Shown in pieces: positions 370 through 64,000 of a stretch of DNA of 64,000 nt. The DNA comes from Candidatus Dormiibacterota bacterium (GTDB taxonomy: Bacteria; Chloroflexota; Dormibacteria; Aeolococcales; Aeolococcaceae). The notes under the pieces were generated by a model. That model made no database searches. It saw nothing but the letters and a program-made list of their open reading frames with translations, and was not told the origin of the DNA. The stretch spans positions 96,001-160,000 of the forward strand of contig CAVPXI010000005.1 of the NCBI GenBank assembly GCA_963709585.1, given 5' to 3'. Position 1 is the stretch's first letter. Every line of letters starts with the position of its first letter. The position numbers and the translations under genes are program-made.

Positions 370-1696
370 TCAGCTGAGTCGCGACGGCCGCGGTGTCAGC
401 GCCGCTTCGAGGTCGGCCGCGAAGCGTACTGCGTCATCGGGTTCGAGTCGCGACGTGGTGACCCGGATGCCTCGCTGGCTGGCGATCCGGAACCGGTCCC
501 CGGCGAGCACGCCCCAGCCATGCTCCTGGAGGGCGGCAACAGTCGCGTCCTCGTGAGCCACCGGGACCCAGACGTTGAGGCCCGAGCGGCCGTGGGAACT
601 CGATGCCGCGGGCGCCGAGCGCTTCGCGAAGCGCGTCGCGGCGGCGCGTGTAGGTGGCAGCGACCTGCTGCGCACGATCCGCCTCACGGGGGTCGCTCCA
701 GATCCGAACGACCAGCCGTTGGAGGAGATGGGACACCCATCCGGCGGCAAGCAGGCGGCGACCTTCGACGCGCGCCACCGTGGTCGCGTCACCCGCCATG
801 ATGGCGAGACGCAGGTCCGGTCCCAGCGACTTCGAAACCGACCGGAGATGCGCCCAGCGAGCCCGCCCCGGCTCACACAGCGAGTGGCATGGACGTTCTG
901 TGATGTCGAAGGCGTGATCATCTTCGAGCACCAGCACCCCCGGATGGCGGGCGAGCACCGCACGGAGCTCGTCGGCTCGTTCGGCGTCGATCGCGGAACC
1001 GTAAGGGTTCTGAGCACGAGGTGTGAGAGCGCATGCGACGGCGCCGGCGCGCAGCGCCCGGGCGAGACCCTCGGCGGTCGGACCACGGTCATCGATCGCC
1101 ACCGGGAGCACGGTCAGACCGAGCGCGGACGCGAGATCGATCACTCCGGGGTAGCAGGGGTCCTCGACGGCGATCCGATCGCCGGGACGGAGGTGAGCGA
1201 GGAGCGCGAGTTGAATGCCATCGAGCGCACCCCCGACGACGGTCAGATGATCGCTCGGCACGCTGTCACGGTCGAGACGGGCCGACGCCAGGGCGAGCAG
1301 CTCGGAGTCGGAGCCCGCGGCCCCATACAGAACCGGCTCGTGGGGCAGCTCGACGAACGCGGACGCGAGATCGGGCAGAAGCGCCGGGTCCGGGTTGCCG
1401 GAGAGCAGGTCGACGACACCGGCAGGCACGATCGGCCGGCCGCGCGGCGACGGAGGGACACGCGGGGCAATGGTGGTGCCGAGCCGGCCGGCCCCGGCGA
1501 CGAGTCCACGACGGCGCAGCTCCCGGTACGCGGACGCGACGGTCGCGGTGCTGATCCCGCGATGGGAGGCGAGCGATCGGACGGTCGGCAGACGCGTCCC
1601 AGCGGTGAGCTCGCCGTCGCGGATGCCACGCTCGACGCTCTCCGCGATCTCAGACGCCCGTCGCCCGGTGATGTGATAACGTATCGGTACGTTCAT
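370..1696 (-). CDS. MocR/GabR-family regulator (GntR HTH plus PLP aminotransferase domain); one frameshift near 596-601, probably a sequencing error
   Basis: N-terminal LPTVRSLASHRGISTATVASAYRELRRRG; AQNPYG, EDDH and SVSKSLGPDLR motifs. The C-terminus (SGLNVWVP...GIRVTTS) continues in the 370..1092 frame. Confidence 0.9.
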
Positions 1697-1699
1697 CGT

Positions 1700-1715
1700 T
1701 TTGTATTATAACAAA
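1700..1715. promoter_or_regulatory. Inverted repeat TTTGT-N6-ACAAA, candidate MocR operator overlapping divergent leaderless promoters
   Basis: tttgtattataacaaa in the 18-bp AT-rich gap between the divergent start codons at 1696 and 1715. Confidence 0.55.
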
Positions 1716-2665
1716 TGACTTCGCGCGTGTCCACACCCCAGGCTTCTCGGGCCCAGATCGTGATCGCCTTTGCCGCGGTGTACGTCATCTGGGGTTCGAC
1801 GTACCTGACGATCCACATCGCCATCGAGACCATTCCCGCGTTGCTGATGTCGGGCGCGCGGTTCATCCTCGCCGGGCTGCTGCTGCTGGCGTTCTCGCAT
1901 CGCCCCGGAGCGCCCCGGGAGCGGCTCACGCCCATCCACTGGCGATCCGCGCTGATCATCGGCGGGTGTCTGCTGCTCTTCGGCAACGGCGGGGTCGCCT
2001 GGGGCGAGCAGTACCTGCCGAGTGGATTCGTCGCGCTCATCATCGCTACGGTCCCGCTCTGGATGGCGCTGTTCGCCCCGGCGTTCGGCGGGCGCTGGAT
2101 CAACTGGACGGCGGCGATCGGCATCGCGCTCGGGCTCGCCGGGATCGTCCTGCTCGTCCGTCCGGGCGGCGGCGCGGGGCACTGGCAGACGCTCGTGGTG
2201 CTGCTCGCGCCGCTCCTCTGGGCGCTCGGTTCGCTGTACGCGCGTGACGCACCGGCACCCCGCCAGCCGCTCACCGCGGTGGGGATGGAGATGATCGCCG
2301 GCGGTGCGCTGCTGAGCATCGCCGGTGTTGCGACCGGAGAGCTCGGCCACGTCCACCTCGGCAACGTGTCCTTCGCCTCCGTTGCCGCCTTCATCTACCT
2401 GGTGCTCATCGGTGCGCTCGTCGGCTACGTCGCGTACATCTGGCTCCTGCACCATGTTTCGGTCACCGCGGCATCCACGTACGCATTCGTCAACCCGGTC
2501 GTCGCGGTCGCGCTCGGAGCGATCGTGCTCGGCGAGGCGGTGACCCCGCTCACACTGGTCGCGGCGGCGCTCATCGTCGGCGCGGTCGTCCTGCTCCTGA
2601 TCGGTCAGAGTCGCAAATCCCAGCCCGCCATCGCACTCGAGGTGCCGGTCCGCGAGGTCGCCTGA
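1715..2665 (+). CDS. EamA/DMT family transporter (YedA-like)
   Basis: VYVIWGSTY, about 10 TM helices, YAFVNPVVAVALG. Confidence 0.92.
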   Translation: MTSRVSTPQASRAQIVIAFAAVYVIWGSTYLTIHIAIETIPALLMSGARFILAGLLLLAFSHRPGAPRERLTPIHWRSALIIGGCLLLFGNGGVAWGEQYLPSGFVALIIATVPLWMALFAPAFGGRWINWTAAIGIALGLAGIVLLVRPGGGAGHWQTLVVLLAPLLWALGSLYARDAPAPRQPLTAVGMEMIAGGALLSIAGVATGELGHVHLGNVSFASVAAFIYLVLIGALVGYVAYIWLLHHVSVTAASTYAFVNPVVAVALGAIVLGEAVTPLTLVAAALIVGAVVLLLIGQSRKSQPAIALEVPVREVA

Positions 2666-2700
2666 CCGCGTCCCCTCGAGACAGGGGTGACAATGGGCGC

Positions 2701-3907: not shown

Positions 3908-5159
3908 TCAGGGAATCGCGACCTCCTCGCGATACTTCGGCAGCCGGCTGGTGCCGCTCTCGACGACCTCGGCGATTCGCTCGGCGGCATCCCACAGGTC
4001 GACAAACCGTGTGTAGAGGGGAGCGAGTCCGAAGCGACACATGTCCGGCGGCCGGAAGTCGCCGATCACACCGCGATCCGCGACCGCACGCACGACCGCG
4101 AGGCCGTCCGCGTGCCGCAGCGAGACCTGAGCGCCGCGGCGTTCGGGCGAGCCGGGAGTCGCGACCTCGAAACCGAGCGCGTCGAGGCGCGCGTGCGCGA
4201 GACGTATGAAGACCTCGGTGAGCATCGCCGCCTTGTCCCCGATGGCGCGGGATCCGGCCTCGAGCTGAAGGTCGACGCCGACGGCGAGCGCGCCGATCGC
4301 CAGCACCGGCGGTGATCCGCTCATCCAGCCCCGTATTCCGGGGGCGCGACGGTACTCGGAGTTGAACAGGAATGGGTTGTCGTGGCCCAGCCATCCCTGG
4401 ATCGGGTTGCGCAGCTCCTCCTGCAGCGCGGTCGCGACGTACAGGTACGCCGGTGATCCGGGGCCGCCGTTGAGGTATTTGTAGCCGCATCCCACCGCCA
4501 GGTCGACGCGGTGGTGATTGAGCCGGATCTCGACAGCACCCGCGGAGTGCGAGAGATCCCAGAGCACAAGCGCGCCGGCAGCGTGCGCGGCTTCGGTGAG
4601 CGCGCCCATGTCGTGGCGCGCGCCGGTCCGGAAGTCGACCTCGGTCAGGATGAGCAGCGCGGTATCACCGTCTAGCGCGTCACCGAGCTCGGAGCGGTCG
4701 ACCGCGCGAACCTCGCAGCCCAGCAGCTCGGCGACGCCGGCGGCTATGTAGAGATCGGTGGGGAAATTGCTCCGCTCGGTGACGATCACACGGCGCTGCG
4801 GCCGCGCCTGCACCACCGACGTCATCAGACGGAACAGCCCCACCGATGTCGTGTCCGCGACCAGCACTTCCCCGGGAGACGCGCCGATCAGCTCGCCGAT
4901 GCGGTCACCGACGCGCAGCGGCGACTCCATCCATCCCGAACTCGGTCCAGCCGCGGACGAGGATCGTTCCCCATTCGTGCTCGGCCATGTTCCGCAACCG
5001 CGACACCGCAGCCTTGGGCAAGCGTCCCATCGAGTTGCCGTCGAGGTAGATCGTGGTGCCGTCGTGGAGGAAGCGATCGCGGAACGCGGCGAGCGGGTCC
5101 TGGGCGTCGAGCGCGACGCACGAGTTGCGGTCGAGAGTGTCAGGAAGTTGAGTGATCAC
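3908..5159 (-). CDS. kynU: Kynureninase; frameshift near 4938-4943, probably a sequencing error
   Basis: IYLDGNSMG in ORF 4905..5159; WDLSHSAG, GCGYKYLNGGPG and DFRPPD in ORF 3908..4930. Confidence 0.93.
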
Positions 5160-11187: not shown

Positions 11188-13999
11188 ATGACCGCACTGC
11201 AGCAGCTCGGCGAACACGGCCAGTCGGTGTGGCTCGACTTCATCAGCCGCGAGCTGGTGACCACGGGTCAGCTGCAGCGCCGCGTCGCCGACGAGAACGT
11301 GACCGGGTTGACCAGCAACCCCACGATCTTCCAGAAGGCGATCGCGGAGGGCTCGCTCTACGACGATCAGATCCGCGAGCTGATCGAGTCCGGGATCGAT
11401 GATCCCAACGACGTCTTCATCGAGCTCGCGATCACCGACATCCAGCACGCCGCAGACATCCTCCGCCCGGTGCACGAACGCACCTCGGGCGCGGACGGAT
11501 ATGTCAGCCTCGAGGTGCCGCCGTCGCTGTCGCATGACACCGACGCGACCATCGCGACCGCGAGAACCCTTTGGGAGCGGGTCGGCCGCCCCAACCTGAT
11601 GATCAAGATCCCGGCCACCCTCGAGGGAATGCCGGCGATCCATCGGACCATCGCGGACGGCCGCAACGTGAACATCACGCTCATCTTCGCGATCGCAATG
11701 CACGATCGTGTGATCGAGCAGTACGTCTCGGCGCTCGAGAGTCGTCACCGGGAAGGGCAGTCGCTCGACGTGCATTCGGTGGCGTCGTTCTTCGTGAGCC
11801 GCGTCGATACGCTCGTGGACAAGCTGCTCGAGGAGAAGCTCGCCGCCGACCCGGGGAACGCGCTCGTCGAGGGCCTGTTCGGCAAGGCGGCGATCGCCAA
11901 TGCGGTGCTCGCCTACGAGCTCTTCGAACAGCGATTCGGTGACGATCGCTTCGCGCCGCTGCGCGCCGCGGGCGCGCATGTGCAGCGTCCGCTCTGGGCG
12001 AGCACGAGTGCCAAGAATCCCAACTACCGCGACGTCGTCTACGCAGAAGCGTTGATCGGGCCCGACACCGTGGACACGATGCCGCCCGCAACCATTGAGG
12101 CATTCCTGGACCATGGCGTCGTGGCCGGTGACACCGTGAAAGCCGACTACGCAGGCGCCCACCGCGTGATGGATCAGCTCGCCGAAGCCGGGATCGACAT
12201 GGATGCGGTGACCCAGAAACTGCTCGATGACGGCGTCAAGCAGTTCGCGAACTCGTACGACGAGTTGATCCGAGGCATCGCCGAAAAGATCGACGCCATG
12301 GGCTCCGGGTACGCACGCCGCCAGCACATCGACACCGGTGGGGCGGCGATCCCGCTCGATACTCCCGCCGCGAGCGGGATCGCCACGCGGATCTGGCACC
12401 GCGACCCCAACCTCTGGAAACCGGGGGACAGCGCTCACGCAACCGTGATCAACAACCGACTCGGCTGGCTCGACGTCGTCGGCGCCATGCGCGAACGGCT
12501 CCCCGCGCTCAAGGCGCTGGCCGGCGAGGTGCGTGACGCCGGGTGGCACGACTGCGTACTGCTCGGCATGGGCGGTTCGAGCCTCTGCCCCGAGGTGCTG
12601 CGCAGCTCCTTCGGCAGCACTGACGGACAGCCGACACTCCACGTTTTGGATACCACCGATCCACTCGCCATCGCCAGGGTGACCGGGGCCATCGACCCGG
12701 AAGCGACCGGGTACATCGTCTCCAGCAAATCGGGCACGACCCTGGAGACGCTCTCCCACCTTGCCCACTTCTGGGAGGTGACCACCGCCGTCACCGACAA
12801 CCCCGGCTCGCACTTCGTCGCCGTGACCGATCCGGGCACGCCGCTTGCGACCATCGCGCGCGACCGAGGATTCCTGCACCTCTTCAAGAATCCGCCGGAC
12901 ATCGGCGGCCGCTACTCCGCCTTGAGCATGTTCGGCCTCGTCCCGGCAGCGATCATCGGGATCGACTGTGAGCTGCTCCTCGAGCGCGCCACCATGATGC
13001 GCAGGAACTGCGCAGCCGGCGTGCCGGGTGACCTCAACTGCGGCCTGAGCCTCGGTACCGTGATGGGCGCGCTCCACGACCAGGGACGTGACAAGGTGAC
13101 CATCCTCGCGCCCAAAGAGATCGAGGCCTACTCGTTGTGGGCGGAACAGCTCATCGCCGAGAGCACCGGTAAGGAGGGCAAGGGCATCATCCCGATCGGC
13201 GACGAGCCGATCGGAGACCCGGACGTGTACGCCGGCGACCGCCTCTTCGTCGCCCTGCGCATCGGCGATGACGCGGGATTCGATCGCTCCGTTGAAGCGT
13301 TGAAGGGCGCCGGGCATCCGGTCATCTCCTTCGACCTCGCCGACAAGTACGACCTCGCCGCCGAGTTCTTCCGGTGGGAGTTCGCAACCGCGGTCGCGGG
13401 AGCGCACCTCGCCATCGATCCTTTCGACGAGCCGAATGTGCAGGAGTTGAAGGACAACACCAAAGCGGTCCTGCAGCAGTATCACGACTCCGGCGCGCTG
13501 CCGGACGAGGCCGCAGCCGTCACCGACGGCGCCCTACGCGTGTATGGCGATGTCTCCGGATCCAGCGCGTCAGGCGCACTGGCCGCCCACCTCGATACCG
13601 CCAATCCAGGCGATTACATCGCGCTGATGGCATACGTCACACCCGACGACGCCAGTGAGCGGGCGCTCCAGGGTCTGCGTGTGGCCATTCGCGACTTCGC
13701 GCCGTCTCGCGACCACGCTCGGCTTCGGCCCTCGCTTTCTGCACAGCACCGGTCAGCTGCACAAGGGTGGACCGAACACCGGGGTCTACATCCAGATCAC
13801 CGCCGACGACGGGACCGATGTGCCGATCCCCGGTCAGCCGTTCACATTCTCGATCCTCAAGCGAGCCCAGGCCGCCGGCGACCTGCAGTCGCTGCGGTCC
13901 CACGGCCGGCGCGTCATCCGCGTCCACATCGCCGGCGACCTTGGTGCGGGACTCGCCAGCCTCACCGACGCAGTCAGCGCAATCACGGCGGCGCGCTGA
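11188..13999 (+). CDS. Bifunctional transaldolase / phosphoglucose isomerase; frameshift near 13693-13698, probably a sequencing error
   Basis: GQSVWLD, TSNPTIF, LWASTSAK (Tal); GMGGSSL, SKSGTT, GGRYS (PGI). The C-terminus GPRFLHSTGQLHKGGP is in the 13655..13999 frame. Confidence 0.92.
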
Positions 14000-14031
14000 G
14001 CGCGGCCGTCACATCGAGGGAACTCACCACC

Positions 14032-14960
14032 ATGCAGATCGGCTTTGTCGGGCTTGGCAGGATGGGCGCCAACATGGTGCACCGGCTCCGTCGCGACGGT
14101 GACCACGCCGTTGTCGCTTTCGATCCCAATCCGGATGCGCGCGCAAGCGTCGAAGCCTTCGGGGCGACCACGACCGCGAGCATCGATGAGCTCATCGCCG
14201 CCCTCGACAAGCCTCGCGGCGTCTGGATCATGGTTCCATCGGGCAAGGTGACTGACGACACGGTGGCGGCGCTGCAGTCGCTGCTCGAGAAAGGCGACAC
14301 GATCATCGACGGCGGCAACAGCAACTATCACGACTTGATCGCGCGAGCGGCCAGGAGCGCCGAGCGCGGCATCAGCTTCATCGATGCCGGGACCAGCGGC
14401 GGCATCTGGGGCCTGCAGGTCGGATACTGCCTCATGGCCGGTGGCGAGCAGGCGACGATCGATCACTGGCGCCCGATCTTCACGACCCTGGCGCCGCCCG
14501 ACGGCTTCCTCCACGTTGGACCGCCCGGCTCCGGACATTTCGTGAAGATGGTGCACAACGGGATCGAGTACGGGATGCTCCAGGCGTACGCAGAGGGCTT
14601 CGCCATCCTCCAGGCGAAGCAGGACTTCGGCGAGCTCGACCTGCACGCCATAACGCACCTCTGGAACCAGGGGAGCGTGGTGCGCTCCTGGCTCCTCGAG
14701 CTCGCCGAGCGCGCATTCGAGCGGGATCCACAGCTGGACCAGTTGCGCGGCTGGGTCGACGACTCCGGCGAGGGACGCTGGACTCTCGAGGAAGCGATGC
14801 AGCTGTCGGTCCCGGCCCCCGTGCTCGCGCTGTCGCTGATCATGCGATATCAGTCGCGCCTGCCCGACGGTTTTGGCAACAAGGTGATCGCGGCGCTCCG
14901 CAACGAGTTCGGTGGGCATCCGGTGAAAGCCGAGACAGCGGCAGGGGCTGCAGCATCACA

Positions 14961-14964
<4 letters not shown>
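14032..14964 (+). CDS. gnd: 6-phosphogluconate dehydrogenase (decarboxylating, short type)
   Basis: MQIGFVGLGRMG, IDGGNS, GHFVKMVHNGIEYG, DSGEGRWT, RNEFGGH. Confidence 0.95.
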
Positions 14965-16520
<1,556 letters not shown>

Positions 16521-17321: not shown

Positions 17322-18030
17322 ATGCCGCGATCGACGTGGAAGCCCTGCCGAGACGCCATCCGGATCGCGCCGAGCTTGCTCGCCGCCGACTTCGGACACA
17401 TAGCGAAGGCTGCTCACGACCTGGAGGAGAGCGGCGCGGAGCGCATCCACGTCGACGTGATGGACGGCGTGTTCGTCCCCAACTTCACGTTCGGCACGGA
17501 TACGGTGCGCGTGCTCCGGCGGATTTCGTCGCTGCCCCTGGAGCTGCATCTCATGATCGTCAATCCCGACGCGCACCTGAGAACCTTCGCGACCGCAGGC
17601 GCCGACGCGATCACCGTGCACTACGAGGTATGTCCGAACCTGCACCGCACCCTGGCATCGATCCGCTCGCTCGACTGCCGCTCTGGCGCGGCGATCAATC
17701 CAGGCACGCCCGCGCAGATGCTCGACGACACTCTCGAGTTCATGCGACCTCGCGCTGGTCATGACCATCGATCCCGGGTTTGGCGGACAGTCACTGATAC
17801 CGCGCACGCTGCGCAAGGTCGAGCACATCCGTCGTGAGCTTGAACGTCAGGGCCTGGACACCGAGGTCGAGGTCGACGGTGGTGTCGACGCGAGCAACGC
17901 GAAGGCGTGTGTCGACGCCGGAGCCGACGTGCTCGTCGCCGGCACCGCGGTGTTCAAGCACGAGGGTGGGCCGAAGGCAGGCGTGGCCGCGCTGCAGCAG
18001 GCCCTGACCGAGGCCGGCGGCGCATCGTGA
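17322..18030 (+). CDS. rpe: Ribulose-phosphate 3-epimerase; frameshift near 17736-17741, probably a sequencing error
   Basis: IAPSLLAADF, HVDVMDG, HLMI; then MTIDPGFGGQ, VDGG, VAGTAVF in ORF 17761..18030. Confidence 0.92.
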
Positions 18031-23002: not shown

Positions 23003-24154
23003 GTGCAGCACAAACCGCACGGTCTGGCGACGCGCGCCCTCCACGTCGGGCAAGGACCCGATCCGTCCACCGGCGCGGTGGTGGTCCCGATTCATCTGGC
23101 GACCACGTTCGCGCAGGAGTTGCCTGGCCGGCACACGGGATTCGAGTATTCGCGCTCGGGCAATCCGACCCGCGCCAACCTCGAGGAGTGCCTCGCGTCG
23201 CTCGAAGGGGCGACCCACGGCCTCGCCTTCTCGTCGGGCCTGGCCGCAACCACGACCGTGATGCTGCTTCTCGATCCTGGAGACCACGTGGTCTTCACCG
23301 AGGACGTCTATGGCGGCACCTTCCGGCTCTTCGACAAGGTCTTCCGGCGCTACGGCCTGACCTTCACGGCGGTCGACCCAACCGATCCGGATGCCGTCGC
23401 CGCGGCGATGACCGATCGGACGCGCCTGGTCTGGCTCGAGTTCCCGACCAATCCGCTGCTCCGGGTCGTGGACATCGACGCTGTGAGCGAGCTCATCCAT
23501 GGCGCCGGCGCGCTGATGGCGGTCGACAGCACGTTCGCGAGCCCGGTGCTGCAGCTACCCCTCGAGCTGGGCGCCGACCTGGTCGTGCACAGCTCGACGA
23601 AATTTCTCGGGGGCCACAGCGATGTGCTCGGCGGCGCGGTGCTCACCTCCAGTGAGGCGCTCGCGGAGCGAATGCGCTTCCACCAGAATGCCGTCGGCGC
23701 CGTGCCCTCGCCATTCGATTGCTGGTTGCTGCTCCGCGGGTTGAAGACGTTACAGCTCCGGGTGCTCCGTCAATGTGAGAACGCCCTGGCGATAGCCCGG
23801 TGGCTCGAGGGTCAGGATGCCGTGACCCAGGTGTACTACCCGGGGCTCGAGAGCAATCCGGGTCATGCGCTCGCCCGGCGTCAGATGGGCGGCCGCTACG
23901 GGGGAGTGGTGTCCTTCGAAGTCTCGTCGGGCGACGCCGCGCGTTCGTTCCTCGAGCGGTTGCGGGTGTTCACGCTCGCCGAGTCACTGGGCGCTGTGGA
24001 GTCGCTCGCCGAAAGCCCGGCGATGATGACCCACGCGTCGATACCGGAGGAGACGCGGACGCGGGTCGGCGTCAGCGACGGGCTGCTGCGCCTGTCCGTC
24101 GGTATTGAGGACGTCGACGACTTGCTGGCCGACCTGGAGCAGGCCCTGGCGTAG
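23003..24154 (+). CDS. Cystathionine gamma-lyase/synthase
   Basis: YSRSGNPTR, HSSTKFLGGHSD, AESLGAVESL, LRLSVGIE. Confidence 0.92.
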   Translation: MQHKPHGLATRALHVGQGPDPSTGAVVVPIHLATTFAQELPGRHTGFEYSRSGNPTRANLEECLASLEGATHGLAFSSGLAATTTVMLLLDPGDHVVFTEDVYGGTFRLFDKVFRRYGLTFTAVDPTDPDAVAAAMTDRTRLVWLEFPTNPLLRVVDIDAVSELIHGAGALMAVDSTFASPVLQLPLELGADLVVHSSTKFLGGHSDVLGGAVLTSSEALAERMRFHQNAVGAVPSPFDCWLLLRGLKTLQLRVLRQCENALAIARWLEGQDAVTQVYYPGLESNPGHALARRQMGGRYGGVVSFEVSSGDAARSFLERLRVFTLAESLGAVESLAESPAMMTHASIPEETRTRVGVSDGLLRLSVGIEDVDDLLADLEQALA

Positions 24155-25326
24155 TCTCACGCGGCGGCGCACCCAGCTTCCACTCCCCGGTGGTGAGCAG
24201 GAGCGTGCCGTCGATCTCCGGCAGCGCCGGAGCACCGAGGCGGCGCAGCTTGCGCCACTGTTCGCCGTCCTCCTCGCTGAGAAACGTGATCGCCTTGCCC
24301 TCGTTGCCGTTGCGCGCGGTGCGGCCGATCCGATGGGTGAGCCACTGCGGGGTCTCGGGCAGCTCGAAGTTGACGACCAGGCCGACGTTCACGACGTCGA
24401 TGCCTCGGGCCGCGACGTTGGTTGCGACCAGCACCTCGGTACGGTTGGCGCGAAACGAGTCGAGGGCGCGATCACGGGCGTTCTGCGACAGGTTGCCCTG
24501 CAGCTCGCCCGCGGTGTGGCCCATGCGAAGCAGGTCGCGAACCAGCTTCTTGGCTCCGTGCTTGGTGCGATGAAAGACGATCGTCTGGTTGAGCTCGGTG
24601 GCGCGCTGGCGGCGCAGCAGCCGTGACAGCGCATCGATCTTCTGCGACTTGACGACGCTCATGACCCCGTGCTCGACTGCGGGAACCTGTTCGTTGACGA
24701 CGCGCACCCGGGCCGGTGCAGTACAGGTGCTTGGTGATCATCCGCTGCACCCAGTCGGGCATCGTCGCCGAGGCGAGCACAGTCTGCCGGCGCGCGCTGC
24801 TGCTGAAGCTCGGACACATCGAGATGATCTTCTCGACATCCTTCGCGAAGCCCTGGTCGAGCATCTCGTCGGCCTCGTCGAGCACGAGGTATTCGATGTC
24901 GCGGAGTCGTGCGAGCCCAGTGCTCGCGAGGTCGAGGAGCCGTCCCGGACAGCCGACGATCACGTCCGGAGCGTTGCGCAGCCCACCGGTCTGGGGTCCG
25001 TAGCCGACCCCGCCGATGCAGATCACCGTGCGCAGCGCCGGGTCGACCTTGCGGATCACCGCGTTGACCTGGGTCGCCAGCTCGCGGGTTGGAGTCACGA
25101 TCAGCGCCCTTGCGCCGTGACTCTGGTGCCCGGCGAGCCGCTCGACCAATGGCACCACGAATGCCAGGGTCTTGCCGGAGCCGGTGGGTGCCTCGATCAC
25201 GCAGTCGTGGCCTGCGAGCAGGGGCGGGATCGCCTCCTGCTGCACTGTGTTCGGCTCTGTGAAACCGCCTCGGCTGAGAGCGGCGGACGTGCGCGGACGC
25301 ACGCCGATGGATTCAAACGTTGTCAC
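24072..25326 (-). CDS. DEAD-box RNA helicase; frameshift near 24720, 3' end uncertain (24072 or 24157)
   Basis: APTGSGKT, PTRELA, DEAD and SAT in ORF 24472..25326; ATNVAARGID and HRIGRTAR in ORF 24072..24707. Confidence 0.9.
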
Positions 25327-25554: not shown

Positions 25555-28236
25555 ATGACGTTCGACGCCTTCCTCCATCAGCTTCCCGACGCGGATGCCG
25601 CGGAGACCGGCGAGTGGCTCGAGTTCCTCGATACGCTGGTTGCCTCCGAAGGTACCGTTCGTGCCCGTTTTGTGATCGGCAAGCTGCTGGAACGCGCCCG
25701 ACGGCTGCAGGTGCCGGTGCCGTCGCTGGTCTCGACGCCGTACATCAACACCATTCCCCCGGACGAGGAGCCGTGGTTCCCGGGCGACGAGGAGATGGAG
25801 CGGCGCATCCGCCGCATCGTCCGCTGGAATGCCGCCGCGATGGTAACCAGGGCAAACAAGAGAAGCGATGGCATCGGCGGTCATCTGTCGACGTACGCGT
25901 CTGCCGCCTCGCTGTACGAGGTGGGGTTCAACCACTTCTTCCGCGGCAAGGATGATGGCAACTCCGGCGACCAGATCTACTACCAGGGACATGCGGCACC
26001 GGGGATGTACTCGCACGCGTACCTCGAGGGTCGGATCACCGAGGCGCAGATGGACAACTTCCGTCAGGAGACGGGGGGCAACGGTCTCAGCTCGTATCCG
26101 CATCCCCGCTTGATGCCCGACTTCTGGGAGTTCCCGACGGTTTCCATGGGCCTCGGGCCGCTCAACGCGATCTACCAGGCACGGTTCAACCGCTACCTCT
26201 ACAACCGCCATATCGTGGACACGAGCGAGAGCCGCGTCTGGTGTTTCCTCGGCGACGGCGAGTGCGACGAACCGGAGACGCTCGGCGCGCTGTCGCTCGC
26301 TGCGCGCGAGCAGCTCGACAACCTCACCTTCGTCGTCAACTGCAATCTGCAGCGTCTCGACGGACCGGTGCGCGGCAACGGCAAGGTGATCCAGGAGCTC
26401 GAGGGAATCTTCCGCGGTGCGGGCTGGAACGTCATCAAGGTCATCTGGGCGCGGGAGTGGGACGAGCTGCTCGCGCGCGATGTGTCCGGTGTGCTCGTCG
26501 ACCAGATGAACCGCGTTCCTGATGGCGAGTTTCAGAAGTACACGACAGAAAGTGGCGCTTACATCCGCGAGCACTTCTTCGGGCCGGATCCGCGCCTGCG
26601 CAGGATGGTTGAGCACCTGTCAGACGACGATCTCCGCCACCTCCGCCGCGGAGGCCACGACTATCGCAAGGTGTACTCCGCCTACAAGCTCGCGCTGGAG
26701 CAACGCGGAGCACCGACGGTGATCCTTGCGCACACCGTCAAGGGATGGACCCTCGGCGTCGGCTTCGAAGGACGCAACTCCACGCACCAGATCAAGAAGA
26801 TCGGTGAAGCCGAGCTGCGCGCGTTCCGCGATCTGCTCGAGCTGCCCATCAGCGACAAGCAACTCACGGAGGCCAAGCCTCCCTACTACCATCCTGGTGC
26901 GGATTCCGACGAGGTCGAGTATCTGTTGATGCGCCGGCGCGCGCTGGGCGGGATGTTGCCGCGAAGGGTCGTGCGCTCCAAGCCGCTCGACCTCCCCGGC
27001 GACGCCCCGTACGCGGAGTTCCTGAGCGGCAGCGGCACCCGTGCGGCGTCAACGACCATGGTGTTCGCCGGACTGCTGCGCAACCTGCTCCGCGATCCGG
27101 GCATCGGCAACCGCATCGTCCCGATCATCCCCGACGAGGCGCGCACCTTCGGCATGGACGCGCTCTTCAGCGAGGTCAAGATCTACGCGCCGTTCGGGCA
27201 GAGCTACGAGCCGGTGGACGCGGGGATGGTGCTCTCGTACCGCGAGGCAGTCGACGGGCAGATCCTCGAAGAGGGCATCACCGAAGCCGGCTCGATGGGC
27301 AGCTTCACCGCGGCCGGCACCGCGTACGCGACCCACGGTCAGGCGGTCATTCCCTTCTACATCTACTACTCGATGTTCGGATACCAGCGGGTCGGGGACC
27401 TCATCTGGGCATTCGGCAACTCACGTGGTCGCGGCTTCATGCTCGGCGGCACTGCGGGTCGCACCACGCTCAACGGCGAGGGCCTTCAACACGAGGATGG
27501 GCATTCGCCGCTGCTCTTCAGTGCGATCCCGAACGTGCGCATCTACGACCCCGCCTTCGCATTCGAGCTTGCGACCGTCATTCGCGACGGCATGCGCCGC
27601 ATGTACGTCGACGGCGAGGACATCTTCTACTACATCACGCTGTACAACGAGAACTACCCGATGCCGCCGATGCCCGAGGGCAGCGAGGAGGGCATTCTCC
27701 GCGGTCTCTACCTGTACAAACCTGCGGGCGCCGCGCGCACCCATCACGCCCGGATTCTCGCCAGCGGCAGCGCCGTCCAGGCGGCGGTCGAGGCGCAGGC
27801 GATGTTGCTCGACCAGCACGACGTCGCCGCCGAAGTGTGGAGCGCCCCGAGCTTCCAGCTGCTGCGCCAGGACGCGCTCGAAGTCGAGCGCTGGAACCGG
27901 TTGCATCCCGACGCCGAGCCGCGCGTCTCGTACGTCGAGGAGCAGTTGGGCGGCGACGACGGACCGATCGTCGCGGTGACCGACTACATGAAGGCGGTCC
28001 CCGATCAGATCGGGCGTTTCGTCAGCGCCCCGTTCATCCCGCTCGGCACGGATGGCTACGGACGCAGCGACACACGGGTCGCGCTGCGCCGGCACTTCGA
28101 GGTCGACGCAGCGTCGATCTCCGTGGCCGTGCTCGACGGGCTGGCGCAGCAGGACCGCCTCCCGCGTCATGTCGTGGCAGCCGCCATCGAGCACTACGAG
28201 CTCGACACCGAGCTCTCCGACCCCCGCTACCGCTGA
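25555..28236 (+). CDS. aceE: Pyruvate dehydrogenase E1, homodimeric type
   Basis: GGHLSTYAS, SSYPHP, GDGECDEPE, NCNLQRLDGP, GEGLQHEDG, LGTDGYGRSD. Confidence 0.95.
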   Translation: MTFDAFLHQLPDADAAETGEWLEFLDTLVASEGTVRARFVIGKLLERARRLQVPVPSLVSTPYINTIPPDEEPWFPGDEEMERRIRRIVRWNAAAMVTRANKRSDGIGGHLSTYASAASLYEVGFNHFFRGKDDGNSGDQIYYQGHAAPGMYSHAYLEGRITEAQMDNFRQETGGNGLSSYPHPRLMPDFWEFPTVSMGLGPLNAIYQARFNRYLYNRHIVDTSESRVWCFLGDGECDEPETLGALSLAAREQLDNLTFVVNCNLQRLDGPVRGNGKVIQELEGIFRGAGWNVIKVIWAREWDELLARDVSGVLVDQMNRVPDGEFQKYTTESGAYIREHFFGPDPRLRRMVEHLSDDDLRHLRRGGHDYRKVYSAYKLALEQRGAPTVILAHTVKGWTLGVGFEGRNSTHQIKKIGEAELRAFRDLLELPISDKQLTEAKPPYYHPGADSDEVEYLLMRRRALGGMLPRRVVRSKPLDLPGDAPYAEFLSGSGTRAASTTMVFAGLLRNLLRDPGIGNRIVPIIPDEARTFGMDALFSEVKIYAPFGQSYEPVDAGMVLSYREAVDGQILEEGITEAGSMGSFTAAGTAYATHGQAVIPFYIYYSMFGYQRVGDLIWAFGNSRGRGFMLGGTAGRTTLNGEGLQHEDGHSPLLFSAIPNVRIYDPAFAFELATVIRDGMRRMYVDGEDIFYYITLYNENYPMPPMPEGSEEGILRGLYLYKPAGAARTHHARILASGSAVQAAVEAQAMLLDQHDVAAEVWSAPSFQLLRQDALEVERWNRLHPDAEPRVSYVEEQLGGDDGPIVAVTDYMKAVPDQIGRFVSAPFIPLGTDGYGRSDTRVALRRHFEVDAASISVAVLDGLAQQDRLPRHVVAAAIEHYELDTELSDPRYR

Positions 28237-29770: not shown

Positions 29771-29772
29771 CC

Positions 29773-42127: not shown

Positions 42128-42902
42128 GTGATGCCATCGATCGGCGAGACGACGCCGGCTTCCGGAGGTCCGAGCACCAGCCTCGACTCGTTGACGCCTC
42201 CGCCCGAAGAGACGCCAACCCGCGATTTCGTGGGATGGACCGCGCAGCCGGAACTTCGGAACAGCCGGCGGCTTTCGGTCGAGGTCACGCGCAAGGTATT
42301 GGCCACGGCGCTCGGGCTCGAGCCCGAGGTGCTCGCACACCTCGACGCCGCTCAGCTCCGAACAGCGCTCGACCGTCTCCGTGCTATGGCCGCGTACACC
42401 CACAAGCTCGCCGAGGTCGCTGCCACCGACGACCTCACCGGCGCGCTCCGGCGGAGTGCGGGACTTGCCGCCCTGCAGCGCGAGATCGACCGGTCCCGCC
42501 GCGTCGGCGGCAAGGGCATCGCGGTCATCTTCCTCGACGTCGACCGCCTCAAGCACGTGAACGACACCGAGGGTCACGCGGCCGGAGACCATGTTCTCGT
42601 CGAGGCCGTCGCCGCGATCCGCAAACGGGTTCGCTCGTACGACCTGGTCATCCGCTACGGTGGCGACGAGTTCCTGTGCGCCCTCGTCGACGTGGACCCC
42701 GCAGACGCCGAGAGCACGCTGGCTGACATCCGCCTCCAGTACACCGCGACGACCGGCCATTCCGTGAGCGTTGGTATGACCACCGTCGGCGACGCGGACA
42801 CCGCTGAACTCGGTGATCGCGAGGGCCGACGCAGCCCTGTATGCGGAACGGCGCAAACTCGAACGGCAAAGTCCGAGCCCCGCCGATCCAACACATTCCT
42901 GA
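42128..42902 (+). CDS. Diguanylate cyclase (GGDEF); frameshift near 42806-42811, probably a sequencing error
   Basis: DDLTG, LKHVNDTEGHAAGD, RYGGDEF. Removing one base restores SVIARADAALY and a stop at 42902. Confidence 0.88.
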
Positions 42903-44770: not shown

Positions 44771-45970
44771 CCGCAGACCTTCCCGAGCTCTCCCTCTCGG
44801 CGCCTGACGCCGCCACGACGGTGGCACCCGCCGAGGCCGAGCGCGAGGTGACCATCGCCCCGGAAGCAGCCAAACGGATCGACGACCTGGTGGCCACGTT
44901 CGTGGGAGGCCTCCGATCGATCGACGTCCACGGCGACGACTACCGCAGACGCGTCGACGATATCGACACCCTCGCCGACCGCGAGATCAGGTCGACCTCC
45001 GATATGAGCAACCGCCTGCTCGACCGTCCGACCCGAGCGATGCGTGGGCTCGGCCAGAACGACGCGCCGATCGCCAAGAGCCTTCTCGATCTGCGTCGAT
45101 CCGTCGAGGAGCTCAACCCGGCAAAGCACGATCTCACCCAGGGTGGTCCCCGGAAGCTCCTCGGCGTCGTCCCGTTCGGGGACCGCGTTCGTGCGTACTT
45201 CGCGAAATACCAGCGGTCGCAGAGCCACATCGAGGGCATCGTCGGCGCGCTGCGCGAAGGTGGCTCGGAGCTCGAGAAGGACAATGCCGCGATCGGCCAG
45301 GAGCAGAAGGCGCTCTGGACGCAGATGGAGACCCTCCGCCAGTACACGTACATGGCCGAGAAGCTCGACACCGGCCTCGAGGCGCAGATCAACCACGTGG
45401 CCATCGGCGATCCGGAGCGTGGCAGGGTTCTCCAGGAGGACATCCTCTACCCCGTCCGTCGACGCCGCCAGGAGATCCTCACCCAGCTCGCTGTCGCCGT
45501 CCAGGGGTACGCGGCGCTCCGTGTCGTCGAGGTCAACAACCGCGAGCTCATTCGGGCGGTTCGAACCGCAACCACCACCACGGTCGCCGCGCTTCGAACC
45601 GCGGTCATGGTCGCGCAGGCCCTCACCAACCAGAAACTGGTCAGCGAGCAGGTCAAGGCAGTGAACGAGACGACCAGCGCGATGATCGAGAGCACCTCCT
45701 CGGTGCTTCGCGAACAGACAGCCACGGTGGAGAACTCAGGCAGCGAGCCCAGGGCTCGACATGGGCTCGCTGCAGCGCGCCTGGGACAACGTCTTCGCGG
45801 CCCTCGATCAGATCGACACCTACAAGTTGCGCGCTCTCGAGGCGATGAAGATCACGGTTCGTGACCTGTCCGACCAGGTCGAGAAGTCACACGCCCAGGT
45901 GGAGCGCCTCCATTCCGCCGACGCGACGGCGCCACGGGTCGCGACCGGGCAGAGCCTCCGCCTCTCCTGA
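44767..45970 (+). CDS. Toxic anion resistance protein (TelA/KlaB family); frameshift near 45732-45737, probably a sequencing error
   Basis: LLDLRRSVEELNP, YFAKYQRSQSHI, QGYAAL, TTTVAALRTAV. The C-terminus LQRAWDNVFAALDQIDTYK is in ORF 45761..45970. Confidence 0.85.
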
Positions 45971-45987: not shown

Positions 45988-46849
45988 TCAGAAGTGAGCG
46001 GTGTTGCTCCAGATCGCCCCGACAATCGCGGCGATGACGAACACCGCGTATTCGACAACGAGCCCTCGGTGTCGTCGCGGCGTGCCCAGGGCGCCGGCGA
46101 CACCGCGAGCGCCGTACCAGAGGACCAGCAGGATCGCCGCCCGCAACCCCGTGTGAGCATTGTTCGCCCCGACGATGGCGGCGCCTCCGATCACGATGGC
46201 GGCAACCACGAGAGCACAGAGAATCGTCGACGGAATCGAGAGGCGCTCGGTTCGGAGCCCGTCGAGGCTCACCAGGAACACGACGGCGAACACCGCGGCG
46301 AGGCGGAGACGCAGCGGCAGGGTGGGTGACACCCCGCCGAGCAGGACCGGCGCCAGAACGGCAATGCCCGAGGCGTCCCTGACCAGGCGGATGAACCAAC
46401 CCTCCTTGCCCAGCGCGCGCCGGCCCGCCAGCTGTGGGACGCCGCCGATGACGACTGCGGCGATGACGCCGCCTCCGATCCGGATCGGCAGCGGCAGCAC
46501 CGCGATCGCAAGCAGGGTCCCGAAGGAGAGGACCGCCGCCATCGGCAGCGCGATTCCGACCGGCCCAGGCCGCGAGTTCGGACGGATAGATCAGAAAGTC
46601 GTAGGCGACCAGGATCAGGCCGGTGAGGATGGCCAGGCCCGTATCGGCCGCGGCACTCCGATACAGACCGACCGCCTCGGGTCGCAGCAGCACCTCGGCA
46701 GCGGCGATCGCGAGCCCGAAGGCCGTGTGCACCATGGGGAGCGGGATCTCCGCGAGCACCCGAACCTCGCCGGTGATGCCCAGGGCGCTCCTCGCCTGGT
46801 CGGCGAGATAGCCGTGACCGCGACGGCGAAAACCTGTTCGATTATCCAC
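45988..46849 (-). CDS. Uncharacterised polytopic membrane protein; frameshift near 46574-46579
   Basis: Hydrophobic N-terminal part in ORF 45887..46849 and about 6 TM in ORF 45988..46542, joined by removing one base. Confidence 0.65.
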
Positions 46850-52038: not shown

Positions 52039-52755
52039 ATGGCTTCTGATCTCACCGCGGATACGGCGCATCCGTCGCTCAAGCACGCGCGCAAGCGGAT
52101 CCGTCTCTGGATGGTGCTGCTCGCGGTTGGCGTCGCATCCATCCTCGCGGGTGGCGCGTTGATCGCCGGCCCGATCATCGGCGTCCTGCAGCGCGGAGCC
52201 GCTGACTTGACGGCGCTCAAGCACTGGAAGGTCAGCCCCGCGCATCCCGCCGCCCCCGCCCCCGCACCGGTGGCCTCAGCGTCGCCCGCGTGCGGGACGA
52301 GCTCGCCGACGGACTTCGCGCTCGTGAGCTTCGAGGCCCCCGCTCAATACCACTACGCTGCGGTCGCCGGCAACGGCACCTGGGCGCTCCTGGATTCGCG
52401 GTCAATGGTTCATTACTCGGGAACGCCCAGTCCCGGTCAGCAGGGGAACGTGATCGTCGCCTTCCATCGGGAACCGGACTTCCAGCACATCGACGAGCTC
52501 AAGGTCGGCGACACCATCTCGATACAGAATCGCACCTGTCAGACCTTCGTCTACAGGGTCACCAACCGCTGGGATCTCGCCCCCAGCCGCGTGACGCAGC
52601 TCAGCCCCACCTCCGGACACGAGCTCACCCTGATCACGTGCGATCCCTGGTGGCAGGACTACAACCGCTTGGTCTGGCGCGCCGAGTTGATCTCCGCGCC
52701 GGCGCCGAGCTCACCGGGATCGACGGGCGGATCGGTGGCCAACCCCGCCTTCTGA
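52039..52755 (+). CDS. Sortase (class D/E-like)
   Basis: N-terminal TM; His (VAFHR), Cys (LTLITCDP) and Arg (NRLVWRA) triad. Confidence 0.88.
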   Translation: MASDLTADTAHPSLKHARKRIRLWMVLLAVGVASILAGGALIAGPIIGVLQRGAADLTALKHWKVSPAHPAAPAPAPVASASPACGTSSPTDFALVSFEAPAQYHYAAVAGNGTWALLDSRSMVHYSGTPSPGQQGNVIVAFHREPDFQHIDELKVGDTISIQNRTCQTFVYRVTNRWDLAPSRVTQLSPTSGHELTLITCDPWWQDYNRLVWRAELISAPAPSSPGSTGGSVANPAF

Positions 52756-55866: not shown

Positions 55867-55940
55867 GCGGTATGGCCTCCCAGGGATGAGCGCTGCCCCT
55901 TCACCGTAGCAAACCCGAGGGCTACACTCTCGCCAAGCCG

Positions 55941-57356: not shown

Positions 57357-57981
57357 ATGCGGAGTCGACGTTCGAGAGCCGCCCTGCTTGACCGCGGTCG
57401 CGCGGCAGATACGATCAGTGATCTTGCCGATCACGCGGTGACACTGGCGCGCGGTGCAGGGAGCGCGGCGCTTCCGACTGTGCAGCGCGGCGCGGAAGGA
57501 TTGAGCCAGGTCCTCCAGACGGCGGCCGGTACCCTGGCGGATACCGCCGGGCAGATCGCCTCAGACGAGAAGGTCGTCGCGGCGAGCAACGCCGCTCGTG
57601 AACGGATCGCAGACGTGTCAGGCAAGCTGAGCAGCGCCGTCCGCCCGAAGAAGAAGACACATCGCGTGCGCAATCTCCTGATCGGAGCGGCCGTGGTCGG
57701 CGGAGTGTTCGCGCTCATCCAGTCGCCGCTCCGCGCCAAGATCCAGGAGCGCCTCTTCGGCCCGCCGCCATCCGATGATGACGATCTTCCGCAGATCACC
57801 CTGCCCGACGATGATCCTCATGTCGAGATCACCGATCTGACCAAGGCATCGAAGTCCGAGGCCGACGCGGCAACCGACGTCGTCGGTACCCCGGTGGTCG
57901 CCGAGTTCGACGTCGCGCGCCGGACGAGGCCACGGTCACAACCACGACGAACCCACCGACAACCAGGAGACCAATGCCTGA
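57357..57981 (+). CDS. Hypothetical single-TM protein; frameshift near 57903-57908
   Basis: GGAGG RBS, Ala-rich helices, KKKTHR followed by a TM segment. Removing one base gives a stop that overlaps the next ATG. Confidence 0.6.
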
Positions 57982-61368: not shown

Positions 61369-61455
61369 ATGCCACTCGATCTGCTCGTCCTTCTGTGCTT
61401 CATCGGGATGATCGTCGCGGCATATCTGTTCACGGACGGTATGCGGAGGATCTGA
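61369..61455 (+). CDS. 28-aa hydrophobic peptide upstream of kdpF
   Basis: MPLDLLVLLCFIGMIVAAYLFTDGMRRI; its 3' end supplies the GGAGG RBS for kdpF. Below the ORF-track cutoff. Confidence 0.65.
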   Translation: MPLDLLVLLCFIGMIVAAYLFTDGMRRI

Positions 61456-61456
61456 C

Positions 61457-61555
61457 GTGGCGTCCGCCCTCACCGGCTACATCGTCTCCGCCGTCATCGC
61501 ATTGCTGGCAGCGATCTACCTGGTTATCGCGCTCGTCGCGCCGGAACGTTTCTGA
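61457..61555 (+). CDS. kdpF: K+-transporting ATPase subunit F
   Basis: MASALTGYIVSAVIALLAAIYLVIALVAPERF; YLxxALxxPERF signature; stop overlaps the kdpA ATG. Confidence 0.9.
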   Translation: MASALTGYIVSAVIALLAAIYLVIALVAPERF

Positions 61556-63282
61556 TGATTGCTCTCGACATCATCGCGGCGGTGATCACCTACGCCGCCG
61601 TCGGCGTCGGTGCATGGTTCATCGGCGGGTATATGGTCAAGGTGTACAAGGGGGAGCGGGTCTGGCTCAGCCGCGTCATCCGCCCGGTCGAGCGCGCCAC
61701 CTACAAGATCATCGGCGTAGACGAGCAGCACGAGCAGGGCTGGCTCCCGTACCTCGTCTCTTTGCTTGCCGCAACAGTCGTGAGCATCGTATTCACCTAC
61801 GTTGTGCTCCGCTTTCAGGATCATCTGCCACTCAACCCCGAGAATCTGCCCGGCGTACCGGGCCCGCTCGCGTTCAACACGGCGATGAGCTTCGCGACGA
61901 ACACAAACTGGCAGAACTACTCGGGCGAGACCACGATGAGCTACTTCTCCCAGATCGTGGCGCTCGTGATCCATCAGTTTCTCAGCGCTGCGGTGGGTAT
62001 GGCGGTGGCGATCGTGGTCATCCGAGCGATCGCACGTCGAACCATGAGCACACTCGGCAACTTCTGGGTGGATATCGTGCGCGGGATCCTCTACATTCTG
62101 CTGCCGATCAGCGTGGTGCTCGCGCTTGTGCTCGTGGCCAACGGGTCGATCCAGAACTTCAACAACTACTCGGTGGTGCACACCCTCACCAACGGTGTAC
62201 AAACGATCGCGCAAGGCCCGGTCGCATCCATGGAAGCGATCAAAGATCTCGGCACCAATGGCGGGGGCTTCTTCAACGCGAACGCGGCGCATCCGTTTGA
62301 GAACCCCAACGGATTCACGAATTCGCTCGAGATCTTCATCTGCCTGCTGATCCCATTTGGGCTGGCCATCACGTTCGGGAAATGGGTCGGTCATGTAAGG
62401 CAGGGAATCGCGCTCGGGGCCGTAATGGGAATCATCCTCATCGGCGGCTTCGGGGTCATGGCGTGGCAGGAGCAGCAGGGCAACCCGGCGCTCGTCAGCA
62501 CAGGCGCGAGCCAGGTCTCGACCGCCACGCTTGCCGGTGGCAACATGGAAGGCAAGTCGGCTCGATTCGGTCCGATCCAGTCGGCGCTGTACAACTCTTC
62601 GACCACCGGAACGAGCACTGGCTCTGTCGATGCCTCACAGGACAGCATGACGCCGATCGGAGGGTTGGTGTCGCTGGTGTTCATCAAACTTGGTGAGATC
62701 ACCCCGGGCGATGTCGGTTCGGGCCTCTATGGGATGGTCGTCTTCGCAATCGTCGCCGTGTTCATCGCGGGGCTCATGGTGGGGAGAACCCCGGAGTACC
62801 TGGGCAAGAAGATCGAGGCGCGAGACGTCAAGTACGCTGCGATCGCGATCCTGGTCCTGCCGGCGTCGATACTCGGCTTCTCAGCGATCGCTGTCCTGAC
62901 GACCGCAGGTCAGGCGGGTCCGATCGCGACCCAGGGCACGCCGCACATGTTGTCGGAGATTCTGTACGCGTTCGCGTCGGCGACCGGCAATAACGGAAGC
63001 GCCTTCGCGGGTCTCTCCGGCAACACCAACTTCTACAACCTGATGCTCGCCGGCGCGATGTGGGCGGGCCGCTATCTCTTCCTGATCCCTGTGATGGCGA
63101 TGGCCGGCAACCTCGTGAAGAAGAAAATCGTCCCCGCAAGCGCCGGAACGTTTCCCACCGACGGATCGCTGTTCGTCGCGCTGCTGATCGGCACGATCAT
63201 CATCGTTGCCGCGCTGACGTTCTTCCCGGCAGTCTCGCTCGGACCGATTCTCGAGCACTTCAAGCTCATAGCGGCATTCTGA
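61555..63282 (+). CDS. kdpA: K+-transporting ATPase subunit A
   Basis: [44 protein letters not shown]. Confidence 0.96.
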
Positions 63283-63283
63283 A

Positions 63284-64000
63284 ATGGCAATCGCAACCAC
63301 ACATCACACCAAGCGCCGGCGCACCAGCGTGACGGACCCGGAGCTGTTGATCCCGGCGATCGGCCAAAGCTTCGTGAAGCTCGACCCCCGTCTCATGGTT
63401 CGCAACCCGGTCATGTTCATCGTGGAGATCGGTGCTGTGATGACGACGTATGGATTCGTCGCCGGCGTCATCAGCAGCAGCAGCGACACCAGCTTCGTTG
63501 GCCAGATCGCGCTCTGGCTCTGGTTCACCGTGCTGTTCGCCAACTTCGCCGAGGCGATCGCGGAGGGACGTGGCAAGGCTCAGGCGCAGGCGCTGCGCCG
63601 GACGCGGACCGAGACCATCGCCCGCAAGTTGCAGGGCGGTGTCGGCGGCAAGGAGGCGGCCGTGGCGGCCATCGACCTTCGCAAGGGCGACATCGTCGTC
63701 TGCGAAGCCGGCGACGTGATTCCGAGCGACGGCACCATCGTGGAAGGCATCGCGAGCGTCGACAAGTCGGCGATCACCGGTGAATCCGCGCCGGTCATTC
63801 GCGAGGCCGGCGGCGACCGCAGCGCTGTCACCGGAGGCACGCGGGTCCTGAGCGACCGCATCGTCATCGAGATCACGCAGAACCCTGGCGAGACCTTTCT
63901 CGACCGGATGATCTCGCTGGTCGAGAGCGCCTCCCGCCAGAAGACACCCAACGAGATCGCGCTCAACATCCTGCTTGCCAGCCTGACTCTCATCTTTCTC
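63284..64000 (+). CDS. kdpB: K+-transporting ATPase subunit B (partial, runs off the window)
   Basis: Manual translation: [62 protein letters not shown]. Confidence 0.95.

Follow-up and report, generated by a model that had tools for sequence, protein, structure and literature searches.

Apparent frameshifts and substitutions at GAGTC/GACTC in a Dormibacterota draft genome are probably consensus errors at a modified motif

Genes in one stretch of a Dormibacterota draft genome, some of them of central metabolism, appear to be broken, or to have lost conserved residues, repeatedly at the same two five-base words, GAGTC and GACTC, and the question is whether this damage belongs to the organism or to the assembly. 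The stretch, called the window below, is the 64,000-nucleotide segment at positions 96001 to 160000 of contig C5 (G000:C5:96001-160000) in assembly GCA_963709585.1 of a soil bacterium assigned to Candidatus Dormiibacterota. The genome, G000, is a 3.52-Mb draft in 24 contigs. Its G+C content is 66.6%, and its completeness is estimated at 88.8%. With S standing for a C or G centre and W for an A or T centre, GASTC denotes GAGTC/GACTC and GAWTC denotes GAATC/GATTC. An earlier note on this DNA had listed eight frameshifts and eight substitutions at GASTC, and the eight hexamers and eight pentamers concerned are all found where it had placed them. From comparison with related genomes we consider it highly likely that these apparent frameshifts and mutations are consensus errors at GAGTC/GACTC, that the motif is probably methylated, and that the cell's own copies of these genes are undamaged.

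The window was aligned with the syntenic regions of G003, G008, G009, G012, G013, G016, and G018, genomes of the same genus that are 78 to 89% identical to it, and with 13 public metagenome contigs of that genus (L127-L139), which are 82 to 87% identical, belong to other species, and served as references only; the search that yielded them gave no short-read contig of the window's own species. Frameshifts were listed as length differences in coding sequence that are not multiples of three. Nine clean coding frameshifts are present in the window: the eight of the earlier note and one more at 24720. Each of the eight consists of a single base that 3/4 to 19/19 aligned genus sequences lack (Table 1), and longer intact frames are found in relatives at every one of these sites. 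The 75 candidate hexamers make up 0.7% of the window, and the probability that at least eight of nine frameshifts would fall inside them is 5e-17. At 57903, where the relatives have GAGCC, and at 13693, where several have GACAC or GACCA, the GASTC word that deletion of one base would restore is one that we infer for this species only.

The interrupted genes show where their proteins are cut. In the MocR regulator, the Pfam match to Aminotran_1_2 stops at the insertion, and the relatives' frames run to 444 to 445 codons. The Pfam profiles of ribulose-phosphate 3-epimerase (2-126 versus 120-198) and TelA (15-276 versus 274-331) are both broken at the frameshift, and the conserved C terminus of the GGDEF protein (…SVIARADAALYAERRKLE…) runs on in the +1 frame of the translation. 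The kynureninase frame at 3911-5155 matches KYNU_C and Aminotran_5. The membrane-protein gene has a 200-codon frame in the window versus 298 to 317 codons in relatives; neither its product nor the hypothetical protein has a Pfam match, and these two calls are based on the alignments and on the longer frames of the relatives. At tal-pgi, the insertion joins two genes in frame: the window has a single 1,258-codon frame (11188-14964) with TAL, PGI, and 6PGD domains, whereas in four relatives tal-pgi is 937 codons long and gnd comes after it as a gene of its own. As judged from these relatives, the apparent transaldolase-PGI/6-phosphogluconate dehydrogenase fusion is a false one, created by the frameshift at 13696.

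The substitutions follow the same words. At the eight sites of the earlier note, between 4/5 and all of the aligned relatives keep GANTC, and the consensus residues that it had given are those of the alignments; the sole exception in residue is G008 at 23438, where that genome's own AAGTC gives WLKSPT. Two additional sites of the same kind, at 12250 and 52204, lie beyond its list. Sites were counted as conserved where five or more sequences could be aligned and 60% or more of these carry GANTC; by this definition, transitions at the edge of the motif were found at 10/33 GASTC sites in the window and at 0/38 GAWTC sites (Fisher, 2e-4), with just three sites altered in any other way. The statement that no event involves GAATC/GATTC agrees with the 38 unchanged GAWTC sites. 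Taken together, the 18 events in the window (8 insertions and 10 substitutions) share one rule: on one strand, the GA that opens GASTC has either its G turned into A or its A duplicated. Read in this way, 14 fall on GACTC and 4 on GAGTC; each can equally be written on the other strand as C5 to T, or as an extra T before C5.

Table 1. Positions and readings of the features discussed; effects are those that the deposited sequence would have, and frameshifts called false are putatively so.
Feature	Position	Strand of gene	Word or motif	Effect or reading	Aligned sequences
MocR/GntR-aminotransferase gene	596..601	minus	GAACTC, extra A at 598	False +1 frameshift	5/5 relatives one base shorter (GACTC in four, GAATC in one)
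Kynureninase (kynU)	4938..4943	minus	GAACTC, extra A at 4940	False frameshift	10/10 one base shorter
tal-pgi, near its end	13693..13698		GACTTC, extra T at 13696	False frameshift, in-frame fusion to gnd	19/19 one base shorter
Ribulose-phosphate 3-epimerase (rpe)	17736..17741		GAGTTC, extra T at 17739	False frameshift	17/18 one base shorter; exception G012, same GAGTTC
GGDEF diguanylate cyclase	42806..42811		GAACTC, extra A at 42808	False frameshift	3/4 relatives (G003, G012, G016) one base shorter; exception G008, same GAACTC
telA	45732..45737		GAACTC, extra A at 45734	False frameshift	4/4 relatives one base shorter
Membrane-protein gene	46574..46579	minus	GAGTTC, extra T at 46577	False frameshift	3/4 relatives one base shorter; exception G012, same GAGTTC
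Hypothetical gene	57903..57908		GAGTTC, extra T at 57906	False frameshift	4/4 relatives one base shorter, all GAGCC
tal-pgi, PGI part	13444..13448		GAGTT for GAGTC	Ser to Leu, QELKD (relatives QESKD/KESKD)	19/19 GAGTC/GAATC
gnd	14332..14336		GACTT for GACTC	Ser to Leu, YHDL (relatives YHDS)	All GACTC/GATTC except G003, GACTTC (own insertion)
Cystathionine lyase/synthase	23117..23121		GAGTT for GAGTC	Ser to Leu, QELPG (relatives QESPG/HESPG)	10/10 GAGTC/GAATC
Cystathionine lyase/synthase	23438..23442		GAGTT for GAGTC	Ser to Phe, WLEFPT (relatives WLESPT)	9/10 GAGTC/GAATC; G008 AAGTC
aceE	25621..25625		GAGTT for GAGTC	Ser to Phe, EWLEFLD (relatives EWLESLD)	5/5 relatives GAGTC/GAATC
aceE	27418..27422		AACTC for GACTC	Asp to Asn, FGNSRG (relatives FGDSRG)	5/5 relatives GACTC/GATTC
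ThpR-like gene	28309..28313	minus	AACTC for GACTC	Ser to Leu, LYEL (relatives LYES/LFES)	5/5 relatives GACTC/GATTC
kdpB	63764..63768		AAGTC for GAGTC	Glu to Lys, VDKSAI (relatives VDESAI)	4/4 relatives GAGTC/GAATC
Additional site	12250..12254		AACTC	Asp to Asn, FANSYD (relatives FADSYD)	Relatives GACTC/GATTC
Additional site	52204..52208		GACTT for GACTC	Ser to Leu, DL (relatives DS)	G003 and G016 GACTC; G012 GATTC; G008 GACTTC (own insertion)
DEAD-box helicase	24716..24724 (24720)		GGTGCAGTAC for relatives' GGCTC-GTAC, one extra base; not at GASTC	Frameshift	5/5 relatives one base shorter
M1, PF01555	C7:583009-584193 (open reading frame)		Motif IV DPPF	Candidate methyltransferase; probable real start near residue 90	
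M2, PF01555	C7:586185-586976		Motif IV DPAY	Candidate methyltransferase	

The same signature extends over the whole genome. We used a three-periodic codon-phase model, trained on 554 long open reading frames, to assign each position a coding phase on either side, and surveyed all hexamers that could be scored 100 times or more. GAACTC/GAGTTC heads the ranking for +1 phase shifts in G000 (35/352, or 9.9%, versus a background of 1.4%; -1 shifts, 2%). Counted from the side of the events, GAGTTC/GAACTC lies near 173/1119 "+1" events versus 62/1269 "-1" events (p = 2.6e-18), and GACTTC/GAAGTC lies near 68 versus 44 (p = 0.003), which corresponds to an excess of about 118 and about 29 "+1" events, respectively. 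The counterparts with an A or T centre show 8 versus 8 events for GAATTC and 21 versus 14 for GAAATC/GATTTC, and five control hexamers are balanced. Calls at single sites are noisy, with six of the eight known sites flagged "+1", MocR missed, and GGDEF called "-1".

Pentamer counts agree with the phase survey. Relative to a maximal-order Markov expectation, the observed/expected ratio (O/E) of GASTC in G000 is 0.745 (4,327 observed, 5,804 expected), which makes the two words the 15th to 16th lowest of 1,024 pentamers. The words that the substitutions would produce are in excess (1.293 for GAGTT/AACTC and 1.253 for GACTT/AAGTC), and GAWTC stands at 1.025. The genome-wide count that the earlier note had proposed as a check returned a depletion of GASTC together with an excess of GASTT and of "+1" shifts at GASTTC. 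Two other measures were set aside. The overall asymmetry of GASTC gain and loss against single relatives was too noisy at 13 to 20% divergence (26 lost and 22 gained versus G013; 29 and 38 versus G008), and the excess at third codon positions was dropped as a measure of error, being raised in the short-read-like set as well.

This short-read-like, fragmented set consists of 16 sequences, namely G009, G013, and G018 (180 to 270 contigs each) and the 13 metagenome contigs, and none of its 122 conserved GASTC sites is changed (window versus this set, p = 5.6e-8). Its O/E values (253 kb) are 0.945 for GASTC, 1.04 for GAGTT/AACTC, 1.08 for GACTT/AAGTC, and 0.944 for GAWTC. The highly contiguous relatives in the genus are G003, G008, G012, and G016. 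Conserved GASTC sites are changed in three of them (G003, 4/26; G008, 7/31; G012, 4/21), and the pooled O/E values of these three are 0.82 for GASTC, 1.24 for GAGTT/AACTC, 1.09 for GACTT/AAGTC, and 0.983 for GAWTC. Examples of such errors in these three relatives (loci L009-L020) are those at window-equivalent positions 3678, 22608, 23438, 44701, and 52204 in G008, at 15948, 21993, and 44701 in G012, and at 14332, 14761, and 53959 in G003. Titles of several related public records share a name prefix with a published MAG catalogue that was built from Nanopore reads alone and polished with Medaka (PMC12313526).

Specific to the S half of the motif, genome-wide, absent from the short-read-like sequences, and placed at conserved residues of central-metabolism enzymes, these changes support the central proposal of the earlier note, that of systematic errors at one modified motif in intact genes. 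The error types, G to A and an extra base at the motif, match known long-read consensus errors at modified motifs. In one report, the substitutions that native DNA shows in excess over amplified DNA cluster at methylation motifs; with R10.4.1, no substitution class is raised more than G to A, and at some sites the rate is above 50% (10.64898/2026.01.14.699587). The course of events would be as follows. GAGTC/GACTC is probably methylated in the Dormibacterota genome, and a long-read basecaller and polisher would misread the modified site, so that on the affected strand the 5' GA would be called AA (G to A, or C to T on the other strand) or GAA, with one extra base. About one in five to one in four genuine GASTC sites would be spoiled in this way. 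Genes that the cell carries undamaged would then seem to contain +1 frameshifts and to encode Leu or Phe for Ser, Asn for Asp, and Lys for Glu. DNA modification is the presumed cause of the errors, and N6-methyladenine at the A of the motif its presumed form.

The earlier note supposed that the modifying enzyme is encoded outside the window, and two adjacent PF01555 methyltransferases, M1 and M2, both candidates for this role, are indeed located on contig C7. They lie about 2 kb apart, with an acyl-CoA dehydrogenase and a small-molecule methyltransferase between them, and no endonuclease is found between or beside them. A type IIS cassette of the form M1-R-M2 was considered and rejected: the plus-strand open reading frames in the interval are spurious, and the interval in fact holds housekeeping genes. 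Both M1 and M2, flanking the dehydrogenase and the small-molecule methyltransferase, were found in 18/18 genus relatives searched; the family tallies take in G021, which is flagged as unpublished and on which no claim rests. The genome search for a HinfI/PleI-like or orphan methyltransferase thus gave two orphan PF01555 genes, but neither a CcrM equivalog nor an AlwI-family endonuclease. PF09491, the family of that endonuclease, has no match in G000 (88.8% complete), in a search whose control matched nowhere. Other methylases in G000 are one PF00145 C5 enzyme on C4 and one PF02384 enzyme on C10; PF02086 and PF05063 have no match there, and since the MT-A70 control search matched nowhere, the absence of PF05063 is unvalidated.

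The solved structures closest to M1 and M2 are M.RsrI for the former and, for the latter, an unnamed methyltransferase (8urk) and then CcrM. M2 stands beside an M1 homologue in just 5/80 loci, of which three are titled Dormibacterota, plus L053, also so titled, and L051, titled "bacterium". M1 and M2 are the best candidate enzymes for the mark, and together they would make it, one on each strand.

Several observations weigh against this account and are gathered here. G016, which has 20 contigs and carries both methyltransferases, shows no change at any of its 28 conserved GASTC sites. That highly contiguous assemblies are long-read assemblies is presumed from their contig counts, and the 24 contigs of G000 are suggestive of the same. 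Homologues of M1, at about 60% identity, occur widely among Actinomycetota and Chloroflexota, and those groups showed no sign of the errors. Against the CcrM equivalog model NF050803, M1 and M2 score 73.3 and 76.9 bits, with a cut-off of 830, and membership in CcrM was ruled out for both on this score. The third-codon-position test does not discriminate: the S contexts give 471/1803 = 0.261 in G000 (controls, 0.110) and 37/175 = 0.211 in the short-read-like set (controls, 0.096). Finally, one clean frameshift in the window, that at 24720, falls outside GASTC.

The excess of A/T at third positions may be a codon-context effect or may reflect real avoidance of GASTC. As an observation on its own, G009, G013, G018, and L127-L139 show A/T at synonymous third positions beside the motif at about twice the rate of control contexts, despite having no errors there.

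Could the modification extend to all four GANTC words, as with HinfI or CcrM, with the basecaller failing only where the centre is C or G? This is possible, though we think it doubtful. At the event sites, relatives retain GANTC whatever its middle base; beyond the Alphaproteobacteria, orphan enzymes of Chloroflexi are known to methylate GANTC at N6 of adenine (PMC6329791); and error spectra are described as varying with motif and platform (10.64898/2026.01.14.699587). Against it, the conserved GAWTC sites are unchanged, GAWTC is at its expected frequency, and the "+1" shifts show no excess at GAATTC and only 21 versus 14 events at GAAATC/GATTTC. There are also two neighbouring methylases, although a palindromic GANTC needs only one, and neither scores as a CcrM equivalog.

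The base modified might instead be the last C of GASTC, as N4- or 5-methylcytosine, which would be read as T or TC; we regard this as unlikely. It draws on the equivalence already mentioned, by which every event is also a C5 to T or an extra T before C5, on the range of PF01555, which spans N6-adenine and N4-cytosine enzymes (N4 enzymes were among the matches), and on the PF00145 C5 methylase on C4. The Asp-first motif IV is typical of adenine enzymes and the Ser/Thr-first form of N4-cytosine enzymes, and motif IV is Asp-first in both M1 and M2. The C5 enzyme on C4 is itself an unlikely culprit, since it was not found in G003, which shows errors; G008 and G012, which show them too, have only distant C5 enzymes.

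Even less probable is that the basecaller or polisher fails at GAGTC/GACTC through sequence context, independently of any DNA modification. Consensus tools do have context biases. In other phyla, however, the O/E of GASTC is 0.913 in 28 loci with nanopore-suggesting titles (246 kb) versus 0.95 in 29 short-read-labelled loci (212 kb), and this lack of a deficit argues against a generic, modification-independent error. G016, contiguous yet unchanged at its conserved sites, argues in the same direction, as does the concentration of native-versus-amplified excess errors at methylation motifs (10.64898/2026.01.14.699587).

Real mutations, that is, pseudogenes and missense variants left by a motif-directed mutational process, are very improbable, although the bases stand in the deposited assembly and its completeness is only 88.8%. 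A single genome would have had conserved residues damaged or whole genes inactivated in rpe, tal-pgi, aceE, gnd, kdpB, and others, and a single hexamer would have had to suffer about 150 +1 shifts or more across that genome. In relatives, these classes of change occur at different sites and only in highly contiguous assemblies. Duplication of the A of GASTC is, moreover, not the product of any mutational process known to us.

A few length differences in the window lie off the motif. The DEAD-box helicase at 24720 has its DEAD and Helicase_C domains (Pfam) in two frames, and the relatives' helicase frames are 424 to 533 codons long. A sporadic consensus error might account for this frameshift, as might a miscall at a second modified word; C5 and PF02384 methylases are also encoded in the genome. 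Between 55864 and 55935 there are two single extra bases, 61 nucleotides apart, each relative to three to four of four relatives, in a conserved stretch between divergent frames that may be coding or regulatory; an Rfam scan of the window found one tRNA only and nothing at 55864-55935. At 29799-29816 the window is one base shorter than 5/5 relatives, in a G+C-rich, poorly aligned segment near the end of the frame at 28565-29821, and this difference may be a deletion error or real variation.

Errors at a modified GASTC would belong to an artefact class already known, with the lineage and the motif as the new elements. They resemble the methylation-motif errors of Oxford Nanopore data in their pile-up on one short motif on both strands, in G to A as the main substitution, in sites where the error passes 50% and so reaches the consensus, and in insertions that give false frameshifts. 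They differ from the published Oxford Nanopore cases in that the motif GASTC and the lineage Dormibacterota are absent from the papers searched, and in that both modification and platform are presumed here from the assemblies. The matches listed in our literature search included nothing on errors at GASTC or on a Dormibacterota methylome.

The candidate system shares with CcrM and HinfI the five-base GANTC core, beta-class PF01555 enzymes, and orphan genes that are vertically conserved, in 18/18 genus relatives. It departs from them in having errors at only the C/G-centred half of the motif (errors are not a direct read-out of methylation), in having two enzymes, and in scoring far below the equivalog cut-off. 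The likeness to PleI, MlyI, and BstNBI, which the earlier note had raised, holds at most for the two-methylase logic. AlwI-family systems that recognise GAGTC/GASTC are described as having two methylases, one for each strand of the asymmetric word (PMC9799307), and in G000 two methylases lie side by side. The likeness does not reach the restriction system: no PleI/AlwI-type endonuclease was found, whether beside M1 and M2 or by the PF09491 search of the 88.8% complete genome, whose control matched nowhere. M1 and M2 are, besides, part of the genus core and not mobile genes. CcrM homologues of SAR11 and Rhizobiales are reported to be specific for GAWTC, an indication that GANTC enzymes can split by the middle base (PMC8919816); in those enzymes methylation falls on the W words and leaves out the S words, whereas here the S half carries the signal. 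We would tentatively suggest that a core-gene pair free of any restriction enzyme marks both strands of GAGTC/GACTC and spares GAATC/GATTC, as an orphan two-enzyme system that mirrors the GAWTC-only CcrM variants and is possibly regulatory, like CcrM.

For users of the assembly, such consensus errors would mean that the disruption of at least eight genes in the window is only apparent (rpe, tal-pgi, kynU, telA, the MocR regulator, the GGDEF cyclase, and two others) and that at least ten conserved residues are miscalled. Extrapolated to the genome, there would probably be well over a hundred false frameshifts and about a thousand false substitutions; the shortfall of GASTC in G000 is about 1,480 relative to expectation, and the excesses are about 1,270 for GAGTT/AACTC and about 700 for GACTT/AAGTC. 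Errors of this kind depress completeness estimates, create false pseudogenes and fusions such as tal-pgi-gnd, and mislead analyses of evolutionary rate or metabolism. The same defect appears in three highly contiguous relatives, and a motif-aware re-polishing of the genus would be worthwhile. For the organism itself, the error pattern is indirect evidence of DNA modification at GASTC in an uncultured phylum, and it points to two conserved orphan methyltransferases. If a two-enzyme GASTC system does exist, these assembly errors would be the first, accidental read-out of its methylome.

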